Origin: a virus
Lineage: Duplodnaviria > Heunggongvirae > Uroviricota > Caudoviricetes
Direction: 5' to 3' (one strand)
Length of the DNA stretch: 13,851 nt
Virus record (IMG/VR): IMGVR_UViG_2706794691_000018
Positions 930 through 12,255 of this stretch are shown here, piece by piece (position 1 is the stretch's first letter; every line of letters begins with the position of its first letter). Under the pieces are notes generated by a model. The model made no database searches and was not told the origin of the DNA. It saw only the letters and a program-made list of their open reading frames with translations. The position numbers and the translations under genes are program-made.

Positions 930-1085
930 TTACTTCCTGGATTCGTAGTCTACGAAGACAGCGACCTCCGTCTGGCCGGTTCGGATTCGTACCTCACAGA
1001 GGTCTTTCCTCGTTACCAGTGCCGTCACTATGACGGTTAAACAGATGACGATCAGGGCGATTAACATCGCCTTTTGCTGCTTCAT
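930..1085 (-). CDS. hok: Hok/Gef-family type I toxin, 51 aa (MKQQKAMLIALIVICLTVIVTALVTRKDLCEVRIRTGQTEVAVFVDYESRK)
   Basis: Strong resemblance to HokD/RelF and Gef as I recall them (single TM helix, LTRKDLCE, TEVAVF motif); AAGGAGAAG Shine-Dalgarno immediately upstream of ATG at 1085. The longer track ORF 930..1142 is an in-frame upstream extension. Confidence 0.8.
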   Translation of the reverse strand: MKQQKAMLIALIVICLTVIVTALVTRKDLCEVRIRTGQTEVAVFVDYESRK

Positions 1086-1291
1086 AGCCTGCTTCTCCTT
1101 GCCTTTCGGCATGTAAGAGGCTAACCTACATGTGCAAAGCATGAAATTGGCCTCAGATTAATGTTAAGCGTCTTGCCGGACGCGTAATGTTAACTGGGGC
1201 TTTTCTCTATCTGCCTTTTGGTGTTCATGCCTGAAGCAGATAGCCTCAAGCACCCGCAGTCATTCTACTTACCTCGCCAATATGAAATCAA
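1086..1291 (-). promoter_or_regulatory. hok mRNA leader with putative hok promoter (-35 TTGATT, 18-bp spacer, -10 TAGAAT, reverse complement of 1262-1291); region expected to carry mok start and antisense sok
   Basis: Promoter hexamers seen on the minus strand. Candidate antisense promoter on the plus strand is TTGCCT (1099-1104), 17-bp spacer, TAACCT (1122-1127). Inverted repeat CTATCTGC (1207-1214) with GCAGATAG (1236-1243) fits a structured leader. Confidence 0.35.
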
Positions 1292-2560: not shown

Positions 2561-3252
2561 TCACAGTATCGCCTCCTGAAAATTACCCTGATAGAAAGCC
2601 AGTACACGCTGCATAGCTTCGCTCTTCCGGCACTCGCGACAGATTATATTCAGGCGCCTGTCGTAGCGGCGTATTTCTCCGTCAGGTAATGACCAGATAA
2701 GGTCCGGATCAACAACAACCGGTTTCCTCACCTTTACTCTCGAGAGTTTTTTGCGGGCGCTTTGCCAGTCCTTGCGAGCCTGTTCAGACGGGAATAAGCC
2801 GTAGCCAGAATTATATACATCACCACTTGCGACCAGTTCTATGCATAAGCGACCGACAGACGCACGACTGATACCTGTTTCATCTGACAACTGCCGANNN
2901 NNNNNNNNNNNNNNNNNNNNNNNNNNNNNNNNNNNNNNNNNNNNNNNNNNNNNNNNNNNNNNNNNNNNNNNNNNNNNNNNNNNNNNNNNNNNNNNNNNNN
3001 NNNNNNNNNNNNNNNNNNNNNNNNNNNNNNNNNNNNNNNNNNNNNNNNNNNNNNNNNNNNNNNNNNNNNNNNNNNNNNNNNNNNNNNNNNNNNNNNNNNN
3101 NNNNNNNNNNNNNNNNNNNNNNNNNNNNNNNNNNNNNNNNNNNNNNNCCATAGTTCGTTCAGCACTTCTTCACGACTGATATCAAGTCGCGCAGCAAGTT
3201 CTATGGATGTGGCTTTTCCCATTGCTTTCAGTGCGTCAAAAACAGTCTCCAT
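2561..3252 (-). CDS. phage HTH DNA-binding protein at the position of ydaW; interrupted by an N-run, full length unknown
   Basis: N-terminal part ([31 protein letters not shown]) starts at ATG 3252 with GGGAGGAAA upstream and overlaps the ydaV 3' end. C-terminal part (…[23 protein letters not shown]…) ends at 2561. The two parts are in different frames across the gap. Confidence 0.45.
2898..3147. other. masked or unresolved sequence (250 N)
   Basis: Run of N in the supplied sequence. Confidence 1.
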
Positions 3253-3274: not shown

Positions 3275-4021
3275 TTACTTCTCAATTCCTGGCTGGACGA
3301 CATTCGGACGCCAGCTCTCCCAGTTAAAATTCACCCATCGCCCGCCGTTCATGGTCATGCGATCCATAATCCGCTCGCCGAGCAATGTTTTCATGGCCTC
3401 ATAGTTCAGGTTTGTCAGCATCCCCACGCTGCGCATCGACGCTGTCCGGCGATCAACAATCTGGTGCAGCACCACCTGCTCGTTTTTCGTCTCGCGCTGA
3501 ATGCCAATTTCATCAAGAACCAGCAGATCCACTTCGCACAGCTCCCGCAAAAATTTTTCGCCTGACTGCCCGTCGTCATAGCTGGCGTGCAGGGCGCTCA
3601 TAACATCAGCCACGGTAACCACAATCACTGTCTGACCGTCTTTCAGCAGGCGATTCCCGATAGCTGCCGCTAAGTGGTTCTTCCCGGTACCAGGTTTTCC
3701 GCTGAACGCAAAATTTGTACACCCGGTCATCAGTTCATCAGCGATGGATTTCGCCTGACTCAACGCGTATCGCTGCGCTTCGTTCTGCACCTGGTAATTC
3801 GAAAACGAGCATTTGCGGTGCAATGGCTGGATGCCAGAGCGATTCAGAATTTTTTCCACCCGCAACTGACGATTCTGACGGTTGATCTCCTCACAACGTT
3901 TCTGGCCTTCGGAAAGTTGCCACTCGCGCCACTCCGCTACCGTCTTGAATGGCGCGGTTACATGTGACGGGGCCAGTCTGCGGATACGTTCAAGAACGTC
4001 GCCTGTCGCAATATTTTTCAT
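3275..4021 (-). CDS. ydaV: DnaC-like replication ATPase (helicase loader, IstB-like AAA+), 248 aa
   Basis: Walker [18 protein letters not shown] and Walker B LLVLDEIG; same length as K-12 Rac YdaV; sits immediately after the O-like gene. Confidence 0.85.
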
Positions 4022-4027
4022 GGTCAG

Positions 4028-4855
4028 TTACCCCCTGAAGCCTGGCGGGATCGNNNNNNNNNNNNNNNNNNNNNNNNNNNNNNNNNNNNNNNNNNNNNNN
4101 NNNNNNNNNNNNNNNNNNNNNNNNNNNNNNNNNNNNNNNNNNNNNNNNNNNNNNNNNNNNNNNNNNNNNNNNNNNNNNNNNNNNNNNNNNNNNNNNNNNN
4201 NNNNNNNNNNNNNNNNNNNNNNNNNNNNNNNNNNNNNNNNNNNNNNNNNNNNNNNNNNNNNNNNNNNNNNNNNNNNNNNNNNNNNNNNNNNNNNNNNNNN
4301 NNNNNNNNNNNNNNNNNNNNNNNNNNNNNNNNNNNNNTCCAGAGGGTCAAACTTTTTGACACCTCGATTCCCCCGGGGGGGATTTAGGGGGGGATCTGTT
4401 TTTAGATCTTTATCTGTATCTTTATTAGTTGCCTTTGTGTTGACATCATGTTCAAACACCACTTCAACATCTGTTTGAACACCTGTTAAATTTCTCTCTT
4501 GTTTTGTTTGAACATCTGCTTCCTTTCTGCTTCTTCTGGCCTGAACAGATGCTTTTCCTGCGGCTGATTTTTTGGTTAATTTTTCCCTGACTGATGCCAG
4601 ATCTTCCTCAATCCGAAGATGCACCCATTCCTCGCCGTTATCGCAAAAAAACTCCTGCAAGGATGGTTCAACATCAGCCCATCGCTCGTTAGTCAGACGG
4701 GCAATTTTTGCCAGCCTGTTTTTAGGTATTGGCTTTCCTGTTTGCCAGTAATTGAACATCAGCAACAAATACGCACCATGCTCCTCTGCTGACAAATGCA
4801 TGGTGTCAGCCAGGTAATCAGCTATGTACAGTTGCATGTATGGTAATGCGGCCAT
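4028..4855 (-). CDS. ydaU: phage replication initiator-like protein (DUF1376-like N-terminus); interrupted by an N-run
   Basis: N-terminus MAALPYMQLYIADYLADTMHLSAEEHGAYLLLMFNYWQTGKP; position between ydaT and the DnaC-like gene. Start is one of ATG 4906, 4855 or 4837; the 3' end lies near 4028 but its frame cannot be verified across the gap. Confidence 0.6.
   Translation of the reverse strand: MAALPYMQLYIADYLADTMHLSAEEHGAYLLLMFNYWQTGKPIPKNRLAKIARLTNERWADVEPSLQEFFCDNGEEWVHLRIEEDLASVREKLTKKSAAGKASVQARRSRKEADVQTKQERNLTGVQTDVEVVFEHDVNTKATNKDTDKDLKTDPPLNPPRGNRGVKKFDPLXXXXXXXXXXXXXXXXXXXXXXXXXXXXXXXXXXXXXXXXXXXXXXXXXXXXXXXXXXXXXXXXXXXXXXXXXXXXXXXXXXXXXXXXXXXXXXXXIPPGFRG
4054..4337. other. masked or unresolved sequence (284 N)
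   Basis: Run of N in the supplied sequence. Confidence 1.
4449..4514. repeat. iteron-like repeats TGTT(C/T)(A/G)AACA, three copies, inside the initiator gene (candidate replication origin)
   Basis: TGTTCAAACA at 4449-4458, TGTTTGAACA at 4472-4481 and 4505-4514, with AACATCTG repeated at 4465-4472 and 4511-4518; preceded by two G7 tracts (4375-4381, 4387-4393) and an AT-rich stretch. Confidence 0.35.
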
Positions 4856-4918
4856 AATTGCCCCGTATGATGCTGCCCGGTGGCTTAGAATAAGCACAAA
4901 CAGCATGGAAACTTTTGC

Positions 4919-5341
4919 TTAATGAACAATGACAGAATCGTCGGAAGACCCGCCGCCGCTGAAATGCGCTTTCCGGTAAACGGCTTGGACTGCATCATCA
5001 TGCGCATCAATTGCCGTACTTAACGCTTCCTGCGCCGCCAGTAATGCACGGCGTTCCAGGGTATCGAAGATGCAGAGTCGGTGACGCAGCTCGCGCGGAA
5101 GGATTGCCAGAATTGCTGGGATCAGCTTCTGAATTTTTTCTCTTTGCGTTTTCGTTTCACCTTTCAACCAACGGTGATAGATATTCTGCTGATTATTCCA
5201 GTCCTTGCCTGGTACCAGGGGCAATTCGCCGCCCCCCTGGCGCAGATATTCTTCAGTAATGGCATTGGCTACCCATGCCTGCCCTTTTTCGGCTGCCAGG
5301 GCTAACAACACTGACTCGATGTGCTCATGCTTGATTTTCAT
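4919..5341 (-). CDS. ydaT: Rac prophage YdaT-like protein (putative toxin / cell-division inhibitor), 140 aa
   Basis: Sequence MKIKHEHIESVLLALAAEKGQAW... matches YdaT as I recall it; its start overlaps the ydaS stop as ATGA (5338-5341). Confidence 0.8.
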   Translation of the reverse strand: MKIKHEHIESVLLALAAEKGQAWVANAITEEYLRQGGGELPLVPGKDWNNQQNIYHRWLKGETKTQREKIQKLIPAILAILPRELRHRLCIFDTLERRALLAAQEALSTAIDAHDDAVQAVYRKAHFSGGGSSDDSVIVH

Positions 5342-5592
5342 GAATCAACTCCCATCAGCTTTTTCGTAGTAGTTTTATTTCTGCCAATAGTTAAAATTAC
5401 ATCAGCAGAAAATAATCCGTTTGATGCATGAGCGATTTTTTCAGCGTAATTTGTTTCGCCGGTATATTCTGTGCGAGGCAATTTTCCGTTATCCATCCAT
5501 TTGTAGATTGCTCTTTGGCTGACACCACAAACGTCGGCCACAACAGAAACGCGAACAGTTTTGATTACATCTTCAAGTGTTTTCTGGTTCAT
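5338..5592 (-). CDS. ydaS: Cro-like HTH regulator, 84 aa from the preferred start
   Basis: HTH segment VADVCGVSQRAIYKWMDNGKLP; ATG at 5592 preceded by GAGGGTGAT; divergent from the repressor gene. Confidence 0.65.
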   Translation of the reverse strand: MNQKTLEDVIKTVRVSVVADVCGVSQRAIYKWMDNGKLPRTEYTGETNYAEKIAHASNGLFSADVILTIGRNKTTTKKLMGVDS

Positions 5593-5653
5593 ATCACCCT
5601 CACAATGTGAACTTTGAGTACATGCTATAACAGAACTGACAGTACATTCAAGA
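5593..5653. promoter_or_regulatory. divergent promoter/operator region between the Cro-like and CI-like genes
   Basis: 61-bp intergenic region with direct repeats GAACTttgAGTACAT (5609-5623) and GAACTgacAGTACAT (5633-5647) and the palindrome CACAATGTG (5601-5609). Confidence 0.45.
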
Positions 5654-6091
5654 GTGAATATCATTGAACTTATGGTTCATGAAGATAAAGCGCGTAAAGA
5701 GTTCGCCAGTAGGCTTGCGCTAGCCTGTGAAAACGCTGGTTATGAACAACATGGAAGGCAGGCAGAAATTGCCCGTCGAATGAAATTAACACCAAAAGCG
5801 GTTAGCAAATGGTTTAATGGCGAAACAATTCCTCGCCGAGAGAAATTAAGGGAATTAGCAACACTCATTGGAACAACACCAACCTATCTTTTGGGAGAGG
5901 ATACAGAAGAAAGTGGACAGGTACGTTTCTATCAGGAGTTAAATCCAAGACAAAAAATCATCATTGACCTTCTGGACGAGCTCCCTGACAGTGAGACAGA
6001 TGAACTTTTAAAAACTCTTGAGGAGAAAAAACAGAAGTACAATGCAATTTACGAAGAGCTAGCACGAAAGAAAAAACAAAAAGCCTCTTAA
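5654..6091 (+). CDS. racR: CI-like prophage repressor (XRE-family HTH), 145 aa from GTG 5654 or 139 aa from ATG 5672
   Basis: HTH QAEIARRMKLTPKAVSKWFNGE with a C-terminal acidic/coiled region; divergent from ydaS at the Rac immunity position. Symbol assigned by synteny, not exact sequence recall. Confidence 0.65.
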   Translation: MNIIELMVHEDKARKEFASRLALACENAGYEQHGRQAEIARRMKLTPKAVSKWFNGETIPRREKLRELATLIGTTPTYLLGEDTEESGQVRFYQELNPRQKIIIDLLDELPDSETDELLKTLEEKKQKYNAIYEELARKKKQKAS

Positions 6092-6154
6092 ACCAGCATA
6101 AATCCGGTAGCGTCCCCCTCCGGGTTTGTGCTTCACTTTATCCCATCTCATTTT

Positions 6155-6212
6155 TTTACACACAAAATGTACTTATAGTACTTTACATCAATGAACACAA
6201 AGTACATTATAT
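6155..6212 (+). promoter_or_regulatory. second operator-like cluster with candidate rightward promoter (-35 TTTACA 6182-6187, -10 CATTAT/TTATAT 6205-6212)
   Basis: ATGTACT (6167-6173), AGTACT (6177-6182) and AGTACAT (6201-6207) recur here and share the core of the 5609-5647 repeats; ACACAAA precedes two of them. Confidence 0.3.
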
Positions 6213-6381
6213 ACCTACCAACCCACCCCGCCCCACAGAACGCAGGGCAATACTTCGAGTTACCAGGCAGTGGTCAGGGGTTAAGTAGCCAGCCCGAGGC
6301 GTATGAACATGACGGCAGGGTTCAGATTTTGCAGTGCAGCAGGTTTCAGTTCCGCCACCCGGCGTTAAGGGGAGAGATAAG

Positions 6382-7225: not shown

Positions 7226-7475
7226 NNNNNNNNNNNNNNNNNNNNNNNNNNNNNNNNNNNNNNNNNNNNNNNNNNNNNNNNNNNNNNNNNNNNNNNNNNN
7301 NNNNNNNNNNNNNNNNNNNNNNNNNNNNNNNNNNNNNNNNNNNNNNNNNNNNNNNNNNNNNNNNNNNNNNNNNNNNNNNNNNNNNNNNNNNNNNNNNNNN
7401 NNNNNNNNNNNNNNNNNNNNNNNNNNNNNNNNNNNNNNNNNNNNNNNNNNNNNNNNNNNNNNNNNNNNNNNNNNN
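7226..7475. other. masked or unresolved sequence (250 N) between sieB and kilR
   Basis: Run of N in the supplied sequence. Confidence 1.
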
Positions 7476-11060: not shown

Positions 11061-11905
11061 GCAACCACCAATCGCAAAAGCCGATCTGCAAAAAACTCAG
11101 GGAAACCGTGCACCAGCAGCAATTAAAAATAACGACGTGATTAGTTTTATTAACCAGCCATCAATGAAAGAGCAACTGGCAGCAGCTCTTCCACGCCATA
11201 TGACGGCTGAACGTATGATCCGTATCGCCACCACAGAAATTCGTAAAGTTCCGGCGTTAGGAAACTGTGACACTATGAGTTTTGTCAGTGCAATCGTACA
11301 GTGTTCACAGCTCGGACTTGAGCCCGGTAGCGCCCTCGGTCATGCATATTTACTGCCTTTTGGTAATAAAAACGAAAAGAGCGGTAAAAAAAACGTTCAG
11401 CTAATCATTGGCNNNNNNNNNNNNNNNNNNNNNNNNNNNNNNNNNNNNNNNNNNNNNNNNNNNNNNNNNNNNNNNNNNNNNNNNNNNNNNNNNNNNNNNN
11501 NNNNNNNNNNNNNNNNNNNNNNNNNNNNNNNNNNNNNNNNNNNNNNNNNNNNNNNNNNNNNNNNNNNNNNNNNNNNNNNNNNNNNNNNNNNNNNNNNNNN
11601 NNNNNNNNNNNNNNNNNNNNNNNNNNNNNNNNNNNNNNNNNNNNNNNNNNNNNNNNNNNNNNNNNNNNNNNNNNNNNNNNNNNNNNNNNNNNNNNNNNNN
11701 NNCTGGTAATAACGGGCCGTGGGTAACTCACTGGGAAGAAATGGCAAAGAAAACGGCTATTCGTCGCCTGTTCAAATATCTGCCCGTATCAATTGAGATC
11801 CAGCGTGCAGTATCAATGGATGAAAAGGAACCACTGACAATCGATCCTGCAGATTCCTCTGTATTAACCGGGGAATACAGTGTAATCGATAATTCAGAGG
11901 AATAA
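11053..11905 (+). CDS. recT: recombinase RecT (single-strand annealing protein); central part masked
   Basis: N-terminal 120 aa ([26 protein letters not shown]...) and C-terminal 66 aa (...[33 protein letters not shown]...SVIDNSEE) match RecT; the two parts are in different frames across the N-run. Confidence 0.8.
11413..11702. other. masked or unresolved sequence (290 N) inside recT
   Basis: Run of N in the supplied sequence. Confidence 1.
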
Positions 11906-12038: not shown

Positions 12039-12255
12039 NNNNNNNNNNNNNNNNNNNNNNNNNNNNNNNNNNNNNNNNNNNNNNNNNNNNNNNNNNNNNN
12101 NNNNNNNNNNNNNNNNNNNNNNNNNNNNNNNNNNNNNNNNNNNNNNNNNNNNNNNNNNNNNNNNNNNNNNNNNNNNNNNNNNNNNNNNNNNNNNNNNNNN
12201 NNNNNNNNNNNNNNNNNNNNNNNNNNNNNNNNNNNNNNNNNNNNNNNNNNNNNNN
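12039..12255. other. masked or unresolved sequence (217 N) covering the ralR 3' end and downstream region
   Basis: Run of N in the supplied sequence. Confidence 1.

Follow-up and report, generated by a model that had tools for sequence, protein, structure and literature searches.

The stretch of DNA analysed here (13,851 nucleotides, referred to below as the window) is a Rac-like Escherichia coli prophage, in which the genes follow the order ydaS-like, ydaT, ydaU and ydaV. The first nucleotide of ydaV is located 7 nt past the end of ydaU. The product of ydaU matches PHROG 6451 ('primosomal protein'), and that of ydaV matches the Pfam families IstB_IS21 and Bac_DnaA (ATPase) and PHROG 50 ('DnaC-like helicase loader', E = 4e-85). 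The annotated start of ydaU is at 4906, but translation probably begins with the ATG at 4855 (MAALPYM...), where the homologues of YdaU begin. The unmasked part of the gene, 4338-4906, is 100% identical to ydaU from E. coli K-12 and from many other strains.

The rest of ydaU includes a run of 284 N. K-12 has 263 nt there, as does an O26:H11 genome that matches the window at 100% identity along the sequenced right flank (4338-5347). Further N-runs that were compared with K-12 also deviate in length (+8, +43 and -37), and the N-runs do not preserve the true lengths. Therefore, the 292-aa ORF is an artefact. Further iterons had been suspected to be hidden in the masked part of ydaU; in the unmasked version of this stretch, a search for a further copy tolerating up to one mismatch found none.

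Table 1. Genes, domain-coding regions and origin-like elements of the ydaU-ydaV region (positions in the window)
Feature	Position	Strand	Description
ydaV	3275..4021	-	DnaC/IstB-like helicase loader
ydaU	4028..4906	-	Initiator (replisome organiser) gene; 4054-4337 masked
YdaU C-domain coding region	4028..4369	-	Mostly masked here; DnaT-like tail ...IPPGFRG at the end
GC-rich boundary element	4370..4393		79% GC; + strand CCCCCGGGGGGGATTTAGGGGGGG; coding strand C7-TAAAT-C7-G5; palindrome CCCCCGGGGG
AT-rich stretch	4394..4431		38 nt, 23.7% GC (window 46.2%); presumed DNA unwinding element
Iteron g	4425..4434		Degenerate or half-site, GCAAC on coding strand; at the border of the AT-rich stretch
Iteron f	4437..4446		Degenerate GTGTTGACAT; coding strand GTCAAC; homologues conserve ..CAAC at the aligned position
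Iteron e	4449..4458		Exact TGTTCAAACA, in the opposite orientation to b and c; counterpart of the conserved GTTTGAAC site
Iteron d	4460..4469		Degenerate CACTTCAACA; coding strand GTTGAAG; homologues conserve GTTGAA at the aligned position
Iteron c	4472..4481		Exact TGTTTGAACA; counterpart of the family-wide CGTTCAAC site
Iteron b	4505..4514		Exact TGTTTGAACA; in an 11-nt unit unique to the Rac lineage
Iteron a	4540..4549		Degenerate CCTGAACAGA; 35 nt from b; weakest; not conserved in distant homologues
DUF1376 N-domain coding region	4595..4843	-	Pfam PF07120, E = 2.7e-26, aa 22-104

An earlier note on this DNA had placed a candidate replication origin in the 3' half of the initiator gene. The candidate does lie inside this gene, just upstream of ydaV, but in its middle (about 40-60% of the gene, minus strand). 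The replication genes contain no other origin-like structure. The sequence TGTTYRAACA has exactly three matches in the window, whereas shuffled sequences are expected to carry 0.12 and none of 200 shuffles reaches three. These matches (iterons e, c and b, 23 and 33 nt apart) are the 10-bp near-palindromic repeats of the earlier note, which had located them correctly; the copy at 4449 is inverted relative to those at 4472 and 4505. Together with four degenerate sites, they form an array of seven, in which five sites are at 11-12 nt spacing, iteron d being 11-12 nt from both c and e. Two extra core sites (4664-4673 and 4749-4758) are found in the DUF1376 coding region. The repeat core is GTTCAAAC in Rac, i.e. 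1 nt longer than the core of the family.

The sites differ in their variability. Among 35 Rac-like haplotypes, the core of iteron c does not vary; iteron e has one variable position out of ten among Rac-like haplotypes. Taken together, the cores of c and e display 1/19 variable positions versus 24/58 around them (p = 0.004). Iteron f varies within these haplotypes and iteron b is variable in some of them; as b, d and f are variable among near-identical Rac prophages, some of the seven sites may have no function. At iteron g, CAAC-(T/G)AATAAAGA shows no or almost no variation across 13 taxa.

The AT-rich segment with ATCT and AGATCT motifs described between the G7 runs and the repeats is indeed present. 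It contains ATCTKT-type hexamer repeats, for which TRF detects a 6-nt period only (ATCTTT x 3.3), with two GATC sites (4393, 4405) and one AGATCT (4404). The two G7 homopolymers (4375-4381 and 4387-4393, with ATTTA between them) were found as described and are the only ones in the window; a pair of such runs is by itself not unlikely, since 36 of 200 shuffles have at least two. The predicted single-strand DNA fold of this G/C block gives no better hairpin than shuffles (z = -0.8), and a comparison of the candidate origin segment with Rfam gave no match. The oriC 13-mer consensus GATCTnTTnTTTT has one match with two mismatches in the AT-rich stretch (4393-4405); window-wide, 13 matches were found for 7.3 expected (4 of 200 shuffles reach 13), a resemblance that does not clearly exceed chance. 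DnaA boxes (TTWTNCACA) are not enriched in the window (32 matches for 28.5 expected), and the sole match near the candidate origin is a 1-mismatch one at 4353-4361. A cluster of DnaA boxes, as in DnaA-dependent origins, was not found.

All these elements fall between the N-domain and the C-domain of YdaU, i.e. in DNA coding for the linker. The Pfam search of YdaU identified DUF1376 only and no Phage_rep_O domain, which is the N-domain of the lambda O family. The description of the gene as 'O-like' thus holds for the function and for the C-domain but not for the N-domain. The C-domain starts at about aa 172 in the 268-aa form beginning with MAALPYM (near aa 189 when counted on the annotated 285-aa form) and is also encoded, according to tblastn, by the 'replication protein O' genes of Gifsy-1, SPN3UB, mEpX1 and Klebsiella phages. 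YdaU ends in 19 residues, RQVNTVSLPDSAIPPGFRG, that match the C-terminus of DnaT, RDVNTVSEPDSQIPPGFRG (PDB 2ru8, E = 5e-4; 9zbt, E = 2e-3). A profile of diverse YdaU C-domains compared with PDB did not recover DnaT and gave spurious PPR matches; the similarity to DnaT is therefore firm for the tail alone. The AlphaFold single-sequence model of YdaU (pLDDT 49) was too poor to be used, and all sequences retrieved by a protein search were 100% identical over the query. DUF1376, listed by Pfam as a domain of "unknown function", is presumed to be the iteron-binding domain on the basis of the co-variation described below; if true, the role of origin-binding initiator would be a new assignment, and the few papers found that mention DUF1376 do not address origin binding.

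The region was compared with about 60 distinct homologues. In 46 non-redundant DUF1376 loci, the GTTSAA/TTSAAC core reaches 15.5 matches/kb in the 210 nt that follow the AGKAS motif versus 1.9/kb elsewhere, i.e. the GTTSAAC core is about eightfold enriched, with a peak 60-90 nt past this motif, in both orientations and in several frames. In a DNA alignment of 13 taxa, GTT and AAC triplets recur without variation at intervals of about 11 nt. In the iteron stretch, conservation at the three codon positions is 0.76/0.82/0.72 for an amino-acid conservation of 0.64, versus 0.89/0.92/0.64 and 0.87 in the N-domain; at codons 126, 127, 133 and 142, the third position is invariant while the amino acid varies. 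The comparison shows repeats conserved as DNA and not as protein, which points to selection acting on the DNA.

Furthermore, the sequence of the iterons co-varies with the N-domain of the initiator. vB_EcoS-673R7, which encodes an unrelated N-domain and the same C-domain, carries repeats of the GCGTTACAAA type instead, Gifsy-1 combines a lambda-type N-domain with ATCCCCGAAAACGGGGAT repeats, and a divergent DUF1376 subfamily carries AACCCAG/CTGGGTT repeats with 11-nt spacing at the equivalent place. Conversely, four or more distinct C-modules occur joined to the Rac N-domain and iterons, and all these mosaic joints lie exactly where the AT-rich stretch ends, at AAAGATCTAAAA. In every homologue, the iterons are followed by a low-complexity hexamer repeat, which can be (ACAGAT)n, (AACCAG)n, (AAGAAT)n or (GAAGAG)n at the position of the AT-rich stretch, and then by a GC-rich or palindromic block. 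A C-run / T+A / C-run motif follows the AT-rich stretch of at least ten other initiator genes. Each of the two frames free of stops is used to read it, and the peptides encoded in different genes are PPLNPP, PPKSP, TPLTPQ, PPISP, PPIPP and PPNP. The bias towards Pro codons in this motif was discounted, being partly circular since the motif was found through its C-runs. The elements are thus present and non-random, and their conservation at the DNA level extends over many initiator genes.

Three other explanations of these elements were weighed. According to one of them, the repeats, the AT-rich run and the C/G tracts would have no role as DNA and would be coding by-products of a disordered repetitive linker (VQT..VE..FEH, TNKDTDKD, PPLNPP). 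Indeed, V-Q-T is encoded by both b and c, in one and the same frame, and TNKD/TDTD-like low-complexity peptides occur in many homologues. Moreover, a single frame reads the iterons in Enterobacteriaceae and the linker RSTGV..PFEQ..N.TNKD is semi-conserved there, which may reflect some constraint at the protein level in this family. However, the inverted copy e is read in another frame and the core occurs in at least four combinations of orientation and frame across the family. Third positions of the iteron stretch, at some codons fixed under varying amino acids, are more conserved than those of the N-domain, the C-run motif encodes at least six different peptides in its two frames, and the repeat sequence tracks the N-domain and not the neighbours of the linker. 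That the elements are coding by-products is very improbable; for the repeats, repetition of codons is the explanation that the earlier note had named as counting against an origin. It is also quite improbable that the iterons are sites for a regulatory protein, involved in autorepression, in a roadblock to the transcription of ydaU-ydaV by YdaU or another Rac regulator, or in copy-number 'handcuffing', instead of a replication start. Such a role would fit sites lying inside a transcribed operon, as well as the second cluster of cores found in many homologues about 120 nt upstream of AGKAS, in the N-domain coding region; moreover, iterons of plasmids do double duty in copy-number control. Nevertheless, in every case the sites precede an AT-rich or low-complexity stretch, itself followed by a GC block, a pairing that is the hallmark of origins and not of operators, no promoter-like site was found in the candidate origin segment, and the Rac immunity operators are annotated elsewhere, in the racR-ydaS intergenic region.

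The G7 runs (C7 on the coding strand) might alternatively act mainly as a slippage switch producing a YdaU reduced to its N-domain, which could compete for the iterons. The loss of one C from the first run would lead to an immediate TAA and the gain of one C to a stop after 16 codons. However, 58 of the 59 Rac-type loci of a first scan carry exactly C7/C7, and a second scan added one C6. Homologues carry C4-C6 runs at the equivalent place, which are much less slippery and suggest a conserved element and not a mutable tract. Across about 100 distinct Rac-type contigs (two overlapping scans), the frameshift variants anticipated in the earlier note thus find almost no support: the first run is C6 in one viral contig (L249), a lone case that could be a sequencing error in an assembly, and a 12-nt duplication leads to three C7 runs in another (L062). 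A slippage switch as the main role is very improbable.

The conservation and arrangement of the elements make it very probable that a Rac-type lambdoid prophage has its vegetative replication origin at positions 4370-4551. The initial suggestion of a lambda-like origin within the initiator gene is thereby strengthened, as the repeats are conserved as DNA and co-vary with the N-domain, and as the elements are arranged in the order of the lambda ori. Copies of the DUF1376 N-domain of YdaU would bind the seven TGTTCAAACA-related sites, i.e. the five sites 11-12 nt apart and the two lying 33 and 35 nt further upstream. By analogy with oriλ, the resulting nucleoprotein complex would melt the adjacent 38-nt stretch of 24% GC, possibly aided by transcription of the operon after loss of the RacR-type repressor. 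The C7-TAAAT-C7-G5 block, conserved as DNA, may be the GC-rich boundary or a palindrome of the melted region. The C-domain of YdaU, with its DnaT-like tail, would then recruit the host DnaB through YdaV, as homology and gene order suggest.

The origin of the E. coli K-12 Rac prophage, oriJ, was reportedly described by Diaz, Barnsley & Pritchard in 1979. This prophage belongs to the same family as the window and carries the same replication module, and the candidate origin is, judging from its position and anatomy, most likely the genetically known oriJ. If true, this would pin a classical but poorly mapped origin to about 180 nucleotides inside ydaU. According to published papers, Rac has an active origin, oriJ, and oriJ plasmids replicate; one of the sources on oriJ is Potrykus et al. 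2000 (Plasmid 44:111), as cited in PMC11014345. In work from one group, a qPCR amplicon labelled 'oriJ' is located in ydaV (window 3610-3764), about 600 nt away and not on the repeats. One recent paper terms the K-12 Rac 'replication-defective', which counts against this reading. The literature search found no nucleotide-level map of oriJ, the defining papers being outside its reach. The element is of an ordinary kind, and no description of its fine anatomy was found in the literature.

The general view of origins remains unchanged, since the logic is that of phage lambda. The oriλ, which comprises four 18-bp iterons, about 40 bp of AT-rich DNA and a palindrome, is likewise embedded in the initiator gene (gene O), at a similar relative place: the four annotated iterons of lambda occupy nt 349-433 of 900 versus about 308-432 of 807 in ydaU. 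In both cases, iterons, an AT-rich stretch and a GC-rich or palindromic block follow each other in the direction of transcription, the origin codes for an interdomain linker, the helicase-loader gene comes next, and the genes belong to a rightward early operon controlled by the immunity repressor. The two systems differ by the N-domain of the initiator (Phage_rep_O in lambda, DUF1376 in YdaU), by the iterons (18 nt at about 20-24 nt in lambda, 10-nt TGTT-YR-AACA at 11-12 nt in Rac) and by the loader (P in lambda, the DnaC/IstB-like YdaV in Rac). Furthermore, lambda lacks the C7-TAAAT-C7-G5 block that Rac displays after the AT-rich stretch.

Counterparts of this block are found in Gifsy-1, mEpX1, Klebsiella phage GZ7, Cronobacter phage phiES15 and Pasteurella phage Pmp13, whose initiators have a C-domain homologous to that of YdaU, with a DnaT-like tail in Gifsy-1. 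As in Rac, their origins display C-run/T+A/C-run directly after the AT-rich stretch and have a DnaC-like gene as neighbour, but the N-domains and the iteron types are different (e.g. ATCCCCGAAAACGGGGAT, TTACCCGAATCAGGTAA). Their AT-rich stretch starts with ACACAAAAGA, as in lambda, whereas that of Rac starts with ACACAAAGGCAAC. In E. coli, DnaT (primosomal protein I) and the helicase loader DnaC are encoded by adjacent genes. A DnaC-like gene is also next to ydaU, but DnaT lacks both DUF1376 and an embedded origin. In Rac-SA53-type prophages, this N-domain and these iterons are joined by fusion to a longer C-module, which presumably resembles DnaT and is named 'primosomal protein I' in GenBank. 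Among natural plasmids, no clear full YdaU replicon was found, a 4.6-kb Klebsiella record being linear and maybe an assembly fragment; a scan for loci seeded with three C-domain sequences retrieved near-identical Rac-type loci only.

Beyond Rac, C-run/(T+A)3-5/C-run may be a distinct conserved cis element shared by a large group of origins in phages and prophages, served by initiators with a YdaU-type C-domain and by DnaC-like loaders, and may constitute with the 11-nt GTTSAAC iterons a widespread undescribed origin type. This extension, tentative and with slightly less in its favour than against it, would apply within DUF1376 initiator genes to Enterobacteriaceae, Pseudomonas, Achromobacter/Bordetella, Acinetobacter and others. 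The C-run block could mark a fixed edge of the unwound region or a helicase loading site. The Rac locus fits the proposed group, with GTTSAAC cores about 11 nt apart located 30-150 nt past AGKAS and followed by hexamer repeats, and has one extra 11-nt unit. If true, this would provide a sequence rule for prophage origins of Proteobacteria, i.e. GTTSAAC every 11 nt, then hexamer repeats, then a GC block. In practice, the candidate origin would indicate where replication of induced Rac-type prophages starts. IS elements are present in the origin region of some strains, in which the origin has therefore probably been lost.

Sequence comparison identifies the window as a Rac-type lambdoid prophage of Escherichia coli, distinct from K-12 itself. 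The 569 nt located right of the N-run within ydaU (4338-4906) match ydaU of K-12 MG1655 and of many further strains at 100% identity, and the remainder aligns with K-12 Rac at 96.7-99.4% identity, recE, recT, intR, ydaV and ydaT included. An O26:H11 genome is 100% identical to the window over 4338-5347. The immunity region (5348-6215), with its repressor and cro-like genes, fails to align with racR/ydaS of K-12 and matches O26:H11-type prophages; the replication module is therefore common to prophages of different immunity. The left part of the window, which does not align with K-12 Rac, holds a full-length match to the sok antitoxin RNA (Rfam, 117 bits versus a gathering score of 59; 1080-1255, minus strand; ORF 930-1142, minus strand), indicating a hok/sok-type toxin-antitoxin locus.

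Coordinates of the features discussed (window positions, or residues of YdaU where stated)
Feature	Position	Strand	Remark
ydaV	3275-4021	minus	DnaC/IstB-like ATPase
ydaU	4028-4906	minus	
ydaT	4919-5341	minus	
Small helix-turn-helix gene		minus	DNA-binding; one of the genes around ydaU
DUF1376 domain	residues 22-104		Pfam
YdaU C-terminal domain	from about residue 172		268-aa MAALPYM form; about 189 if numbered over the annotated 285 aa; tblastn
G7 runs	4375 and 4387		separated by ATTTA; the only G7 in the window
AT-rich stretch	4394-4431		23.7% GC (window 46.2%); two GATC, one AGATCT
Site g	4425-4434		degenerate
Site f	4437-4446		degenerate
Site e	4449-4458		exact
Site d	4460-4469		degenerate
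Site c	4472-4481		exact
Site b	4505-4514		exact
Site a	4540-4549		degenerate
N-run	7226-7475		+8 nt versus K-12
N-run	11413-11702		+43 nt versus K-12
N-run	12039-12255		-37 nt versus K-12

The masked runs do not preserve length. The run within ydaU (4054-4337) has 284 N versus 263 nt in K-12 and O26:H11 (+21), others deviate in either direction (Table), and K-12 lacks any counterpart to the run at 2898-3147. Therefore, ORF lengths and frames across masks are untrustworthy and the 292-codon ydaU ORF is an artefact, the annotated YdaU having 285 aa. The annotated start (MLFVLILSHRAASYGAIM...; 4855-4906, minus strand) is itself probably misplaced by 17 codons in the upstream direction; in Enterobacteriaceae and Pseudomonas, the close homologues start with MAALPY.

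The three 10-bp repeats and the AT-rich segment with ATCT/AGATCT motifs described in the earlier note are present, as are the two G7 runs. The three exact TGTTYRAACA copies (sites b, c and e), the only ones in the 13.85 kb, compare with 0.12 expected from shuffled sequences, none of 200 shuffles reaching three; copy e is the reverse complement of the two others. Aligned to its family, the Rac array is one of seven sites, more than the three initially seen. These sites follow each other every 11-12 nt from g to c, with b located 33 nt and a then 35 nt beyond. The Rac core is one nucleotide longer than that of its relatives (GTTCAAAC versus GTTCAAC), and an extra 11-nt unit, which holds site b, sets Rac apart from them. 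Among prophages that are nearly identical elsewhere, variation affects sites b, d and f; the essential portion of the array is probably the inverted pair c/e. The suggestion that the mask conceals more iterons did not hold: in the masked stretch, read from the O26:H11 relative whose right flank is identical, no further TGTTYRAACA copy occurs even with one mismatch allowed, and the sequence is ordinary C-domain coding sequence.

Such repeats could merely reflect codon repetition in a conserved protein motif, and this was examined using DUF1376 initiator genes taken from viral contigs, phage records and a single genome for each species. Over 46 non-redundant loci, the GTTSAA/TTSAAC core reaches 15.5/kb in the 210 nt following the conserved AGKAS motif versus 1.9/kb in the rest of the locus, matches peaking 60-90 nt past AGKAS. 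The core is found in either orientation, with orientation and codon phase combined in at least four ways; in Pseudomonas phage UFJF_PfDIW6, one DNA word is read as RST, VE, LN and NST. Along a 13-taxon DNA alignment extending from E. coli to Pseudomonas, GTT and AAC triplets are invariant about every 11 nt, up to a final invariant CAAC-(T/G)AATAAAGA. The N-domain displays the usual coding signature (conservation of 0.89/0.92/0.64 at codon positions 1/2/3; amino acids 0.87), whereas the iteron stretch gives 0.76/0.82/0.72 with amino-acid conservation of only 0.64, and at codons 126, 127, 133 and 142 the third base stays fixed as the encoded amino acid varies (for example GTT/TGT/CGT or CAA/TCA/CCA). 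Furthermore, among 35 Rac-like haplotypes, 1 of the 19 positions of the c and e cores is variable versus 24/58 in the surrounding linker (p = 0.004). By these results, the repeats are constrained as DNA. A second core cluster is found in most homologues within the sequence encoding the N-domain, some 120 nt upstream of AGKAS (motif VE..LNEFF; window 4664-4673 and 4749-4758, minus strand; also at 2687-2727 of L004 and 1676-1702 of L007); it could correspond to extra binding sites or simply to codons of a conserved peptide.

The iterons follow the N-domain. Phage vB_EcoS-673R7 combines a Rac C-domain (87% identity) with an unrelated N-domain and a linker carrying GCGTTACAAA-type repeats instead; Gifsy-1 has a lambda-type N-domain and six or seven ATCCCCGAAAACGGGGAT repeats; and in a divergent DUF1376 subfamily (Pusillimonas, Brachymonas and others) the place is taken by AACCCAG/CTGGGTT with 11-nt spacing. 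Conversely, at least four distinct C-terminal modules follow the Rac N-domain, iterons and AT-rich stretch, and the joint is always where the AT-rich stretch ends, AAAGATCTAAAA. Recognition of the repeats by the N-domain, with the C-domain serving the loader, would be expected to produce this modular pattern.

In every homologue, the iterons are followed by a low-complexity hexamer-repeat stretch, (ACAGAT)n, (AACCAG)n, (AAGAAT)n or (GAAGAG)n, which is short in Rac (ATCTTT x 3.3, plus strand), and then by a GC-rich, often palindromic block. In genes with a YdaU-type C-domain, this block consists of a C-run, three to five T/A and a second C-run: C7-TAAAT-C7-G5 in Rac, C5-TAAAT-C5-AC-G6 in enterobacterial viral contigs (L073-L081, 57-59% identity), C5-TAAAT-C5 in vB_EcoS-673R7, C5-TTTAAT-C5 in Gifsy-1, C6-TAAAT-C6 in Klebsiella phage GZ7, C6-TAA-C6-A-G6 in phiES15, C5-TATAT-C5 in mEpX1, C6-TATA-C6 in Pmp13 and C5-TAA-C5, then GCAAGCGGGGG, in Bordetella phage IFTN6. 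It is read in both frames avoiding TAA, as PPLNPP, PPKSP, TPLTPQ, PPISP, PPIPP or PPNP. Between Rac and L073, nucleotide identity is 33-50% in the iterons versus 70-80% in the AT-rich start and C-run motif. As the motif recurs across genes, the G7 runs belong to a conserved DNA element bordering the AT-rich stretch on its far side; this element may act as a melting boundary, a loading site or otherwise. The AT-rich start is ACACAAAAGA(C/A) in lambda, GZ7, phiES15, a Morganella phage and mEpX1 despite differing iterons, with a close variant in Gifsy-1 (ACACCAAAGACA) and ACACAAAGGCAAC in Rac (compared at L256 520-535, L008 1757-1775 and L250-L253); the AT-rich part of these origins may thus carry a conserved signal beyond low GC.

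The runs had also been proposed to slip and generate frameshift variants of the initiator. On the coding strand, loss of one C from the first run leads to an immediate TAA and gain of one C to a stop 16 codons on. A first scan found C7/C7 in 58/59 Rac-type loci (56 with G5, 2 with G4), the remaining one (L062, 1663-1698) carrying an in-frame duplication of a 12-nt unit that gives three C7 runs and PPLNPPLNPP; a second, overlapping scan adds one contig (L249, about 870-895) with C6 in the first run and TAA in frame. With one duplication and one C6, length variants are too few to support a slippage switch.

A charged low-complexity linker joins the DUF1376 domain to the C-domain of YdaU, and the DNA encoding it is exactly the repeats, AT-rich stretch and C/G runs. 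According to tblastn, this C-domain is also encoded by 'replication protein O' genes of Gifsy-1, SPN3UB, mEpX1, N7 and several Klebsiella, Cronobacter, Morganella and Pasteurella phages. YdaU ends in 19 residues that are near-identical to the C-terminal end of DnaT from E. coli (PDB 2ru8, 9zbt; E = 5e-4); this tail, RQVNTVSLPDSAIPPGFRG (window 4028-4090, minus strand; L001 9212-9270), ends in GFRG, as do Gifsy-1 O and L073-type proteins. Since the next gene, ydaV, encodes a DnaC-like loader, the pair ydaU-ydaV parallels dnaT-dnaC. Rac-SA53-type prophages carry the Rac N-domain and iterons in fusion with a longer C-module, named 'primosomal protein I' in GenBank, which we take to resemble DnaT.

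The order along transcription, repeats, AT-rich stretch and GC block, is common to lambda and Rac. Indeed, the four annotated ori iterons of the lambda reference record occupy nt 349-433 of the 900-nt gene O and are followed by an AT-rich stretch, then a palindrome; the corresponding Rac elements lie at about nt 308-486 of the 807-nt ydaU (from MAALPYM). A lambda-style origin inside the initiator gene, as the earlier note put forward, is therefore supported at the sequence level by DNA conservation, element order and co-variation of N-domain and iterons. The most economical model, each step of which we infer, is lambda-like: YdaU N-domains would coat the phased iterons, the adjoining AT-rich stretch would open, and the DnaT-like C-domain would bring DnaB in via YdaV.

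According to published papers, which also cite work on oriJ plasmids, Rac has an active origin, oriJ. The 'oriJ' qPCR primers of one group lie within ydaV (3610-3764), about 600 nt off the repeats, and one paper calls K-12 Rac replication-defective. Nothing in the literature searched, outside of which the oriJ-defining papers fall, links DUF1376 or ydaU to an origin sequence. The element is therefore taken here to be an already known origin belonging to a known type; its anatomy at nucleotide level and the pattern seen across the family did not turn up in that literature. Its interest is modest: the logic is that of lambda, the initiator domain differs, and the prophage was already known to carry an origin.

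A 4627-nt Klebsiella pneumoniae sequence, 'plasmid unnamed4' (NZ_CP080357.1), carries only cI-like, cro-like, cII, O-like, DnaC-like and ren genes, the gene set of the lambda-dv plasmid, its O-like gene having a YdaU-type C-domain; being marked linear, it may be an assembly fragment. Finally, some origin regions are interrupted by insertion sequences, in E. coli ECMA0423 and Shigella flexneri SFBU1023 (L093 and L094, from about 1612 onward) and in L066 (from about 1640 onward). The insertions are IS2, placed at site f beyond iteron e (after ...VFEHDA), and, inside the AT-rich stretch, a member of the IS3 family; loss of both initiator and origin is probable in these prophages.
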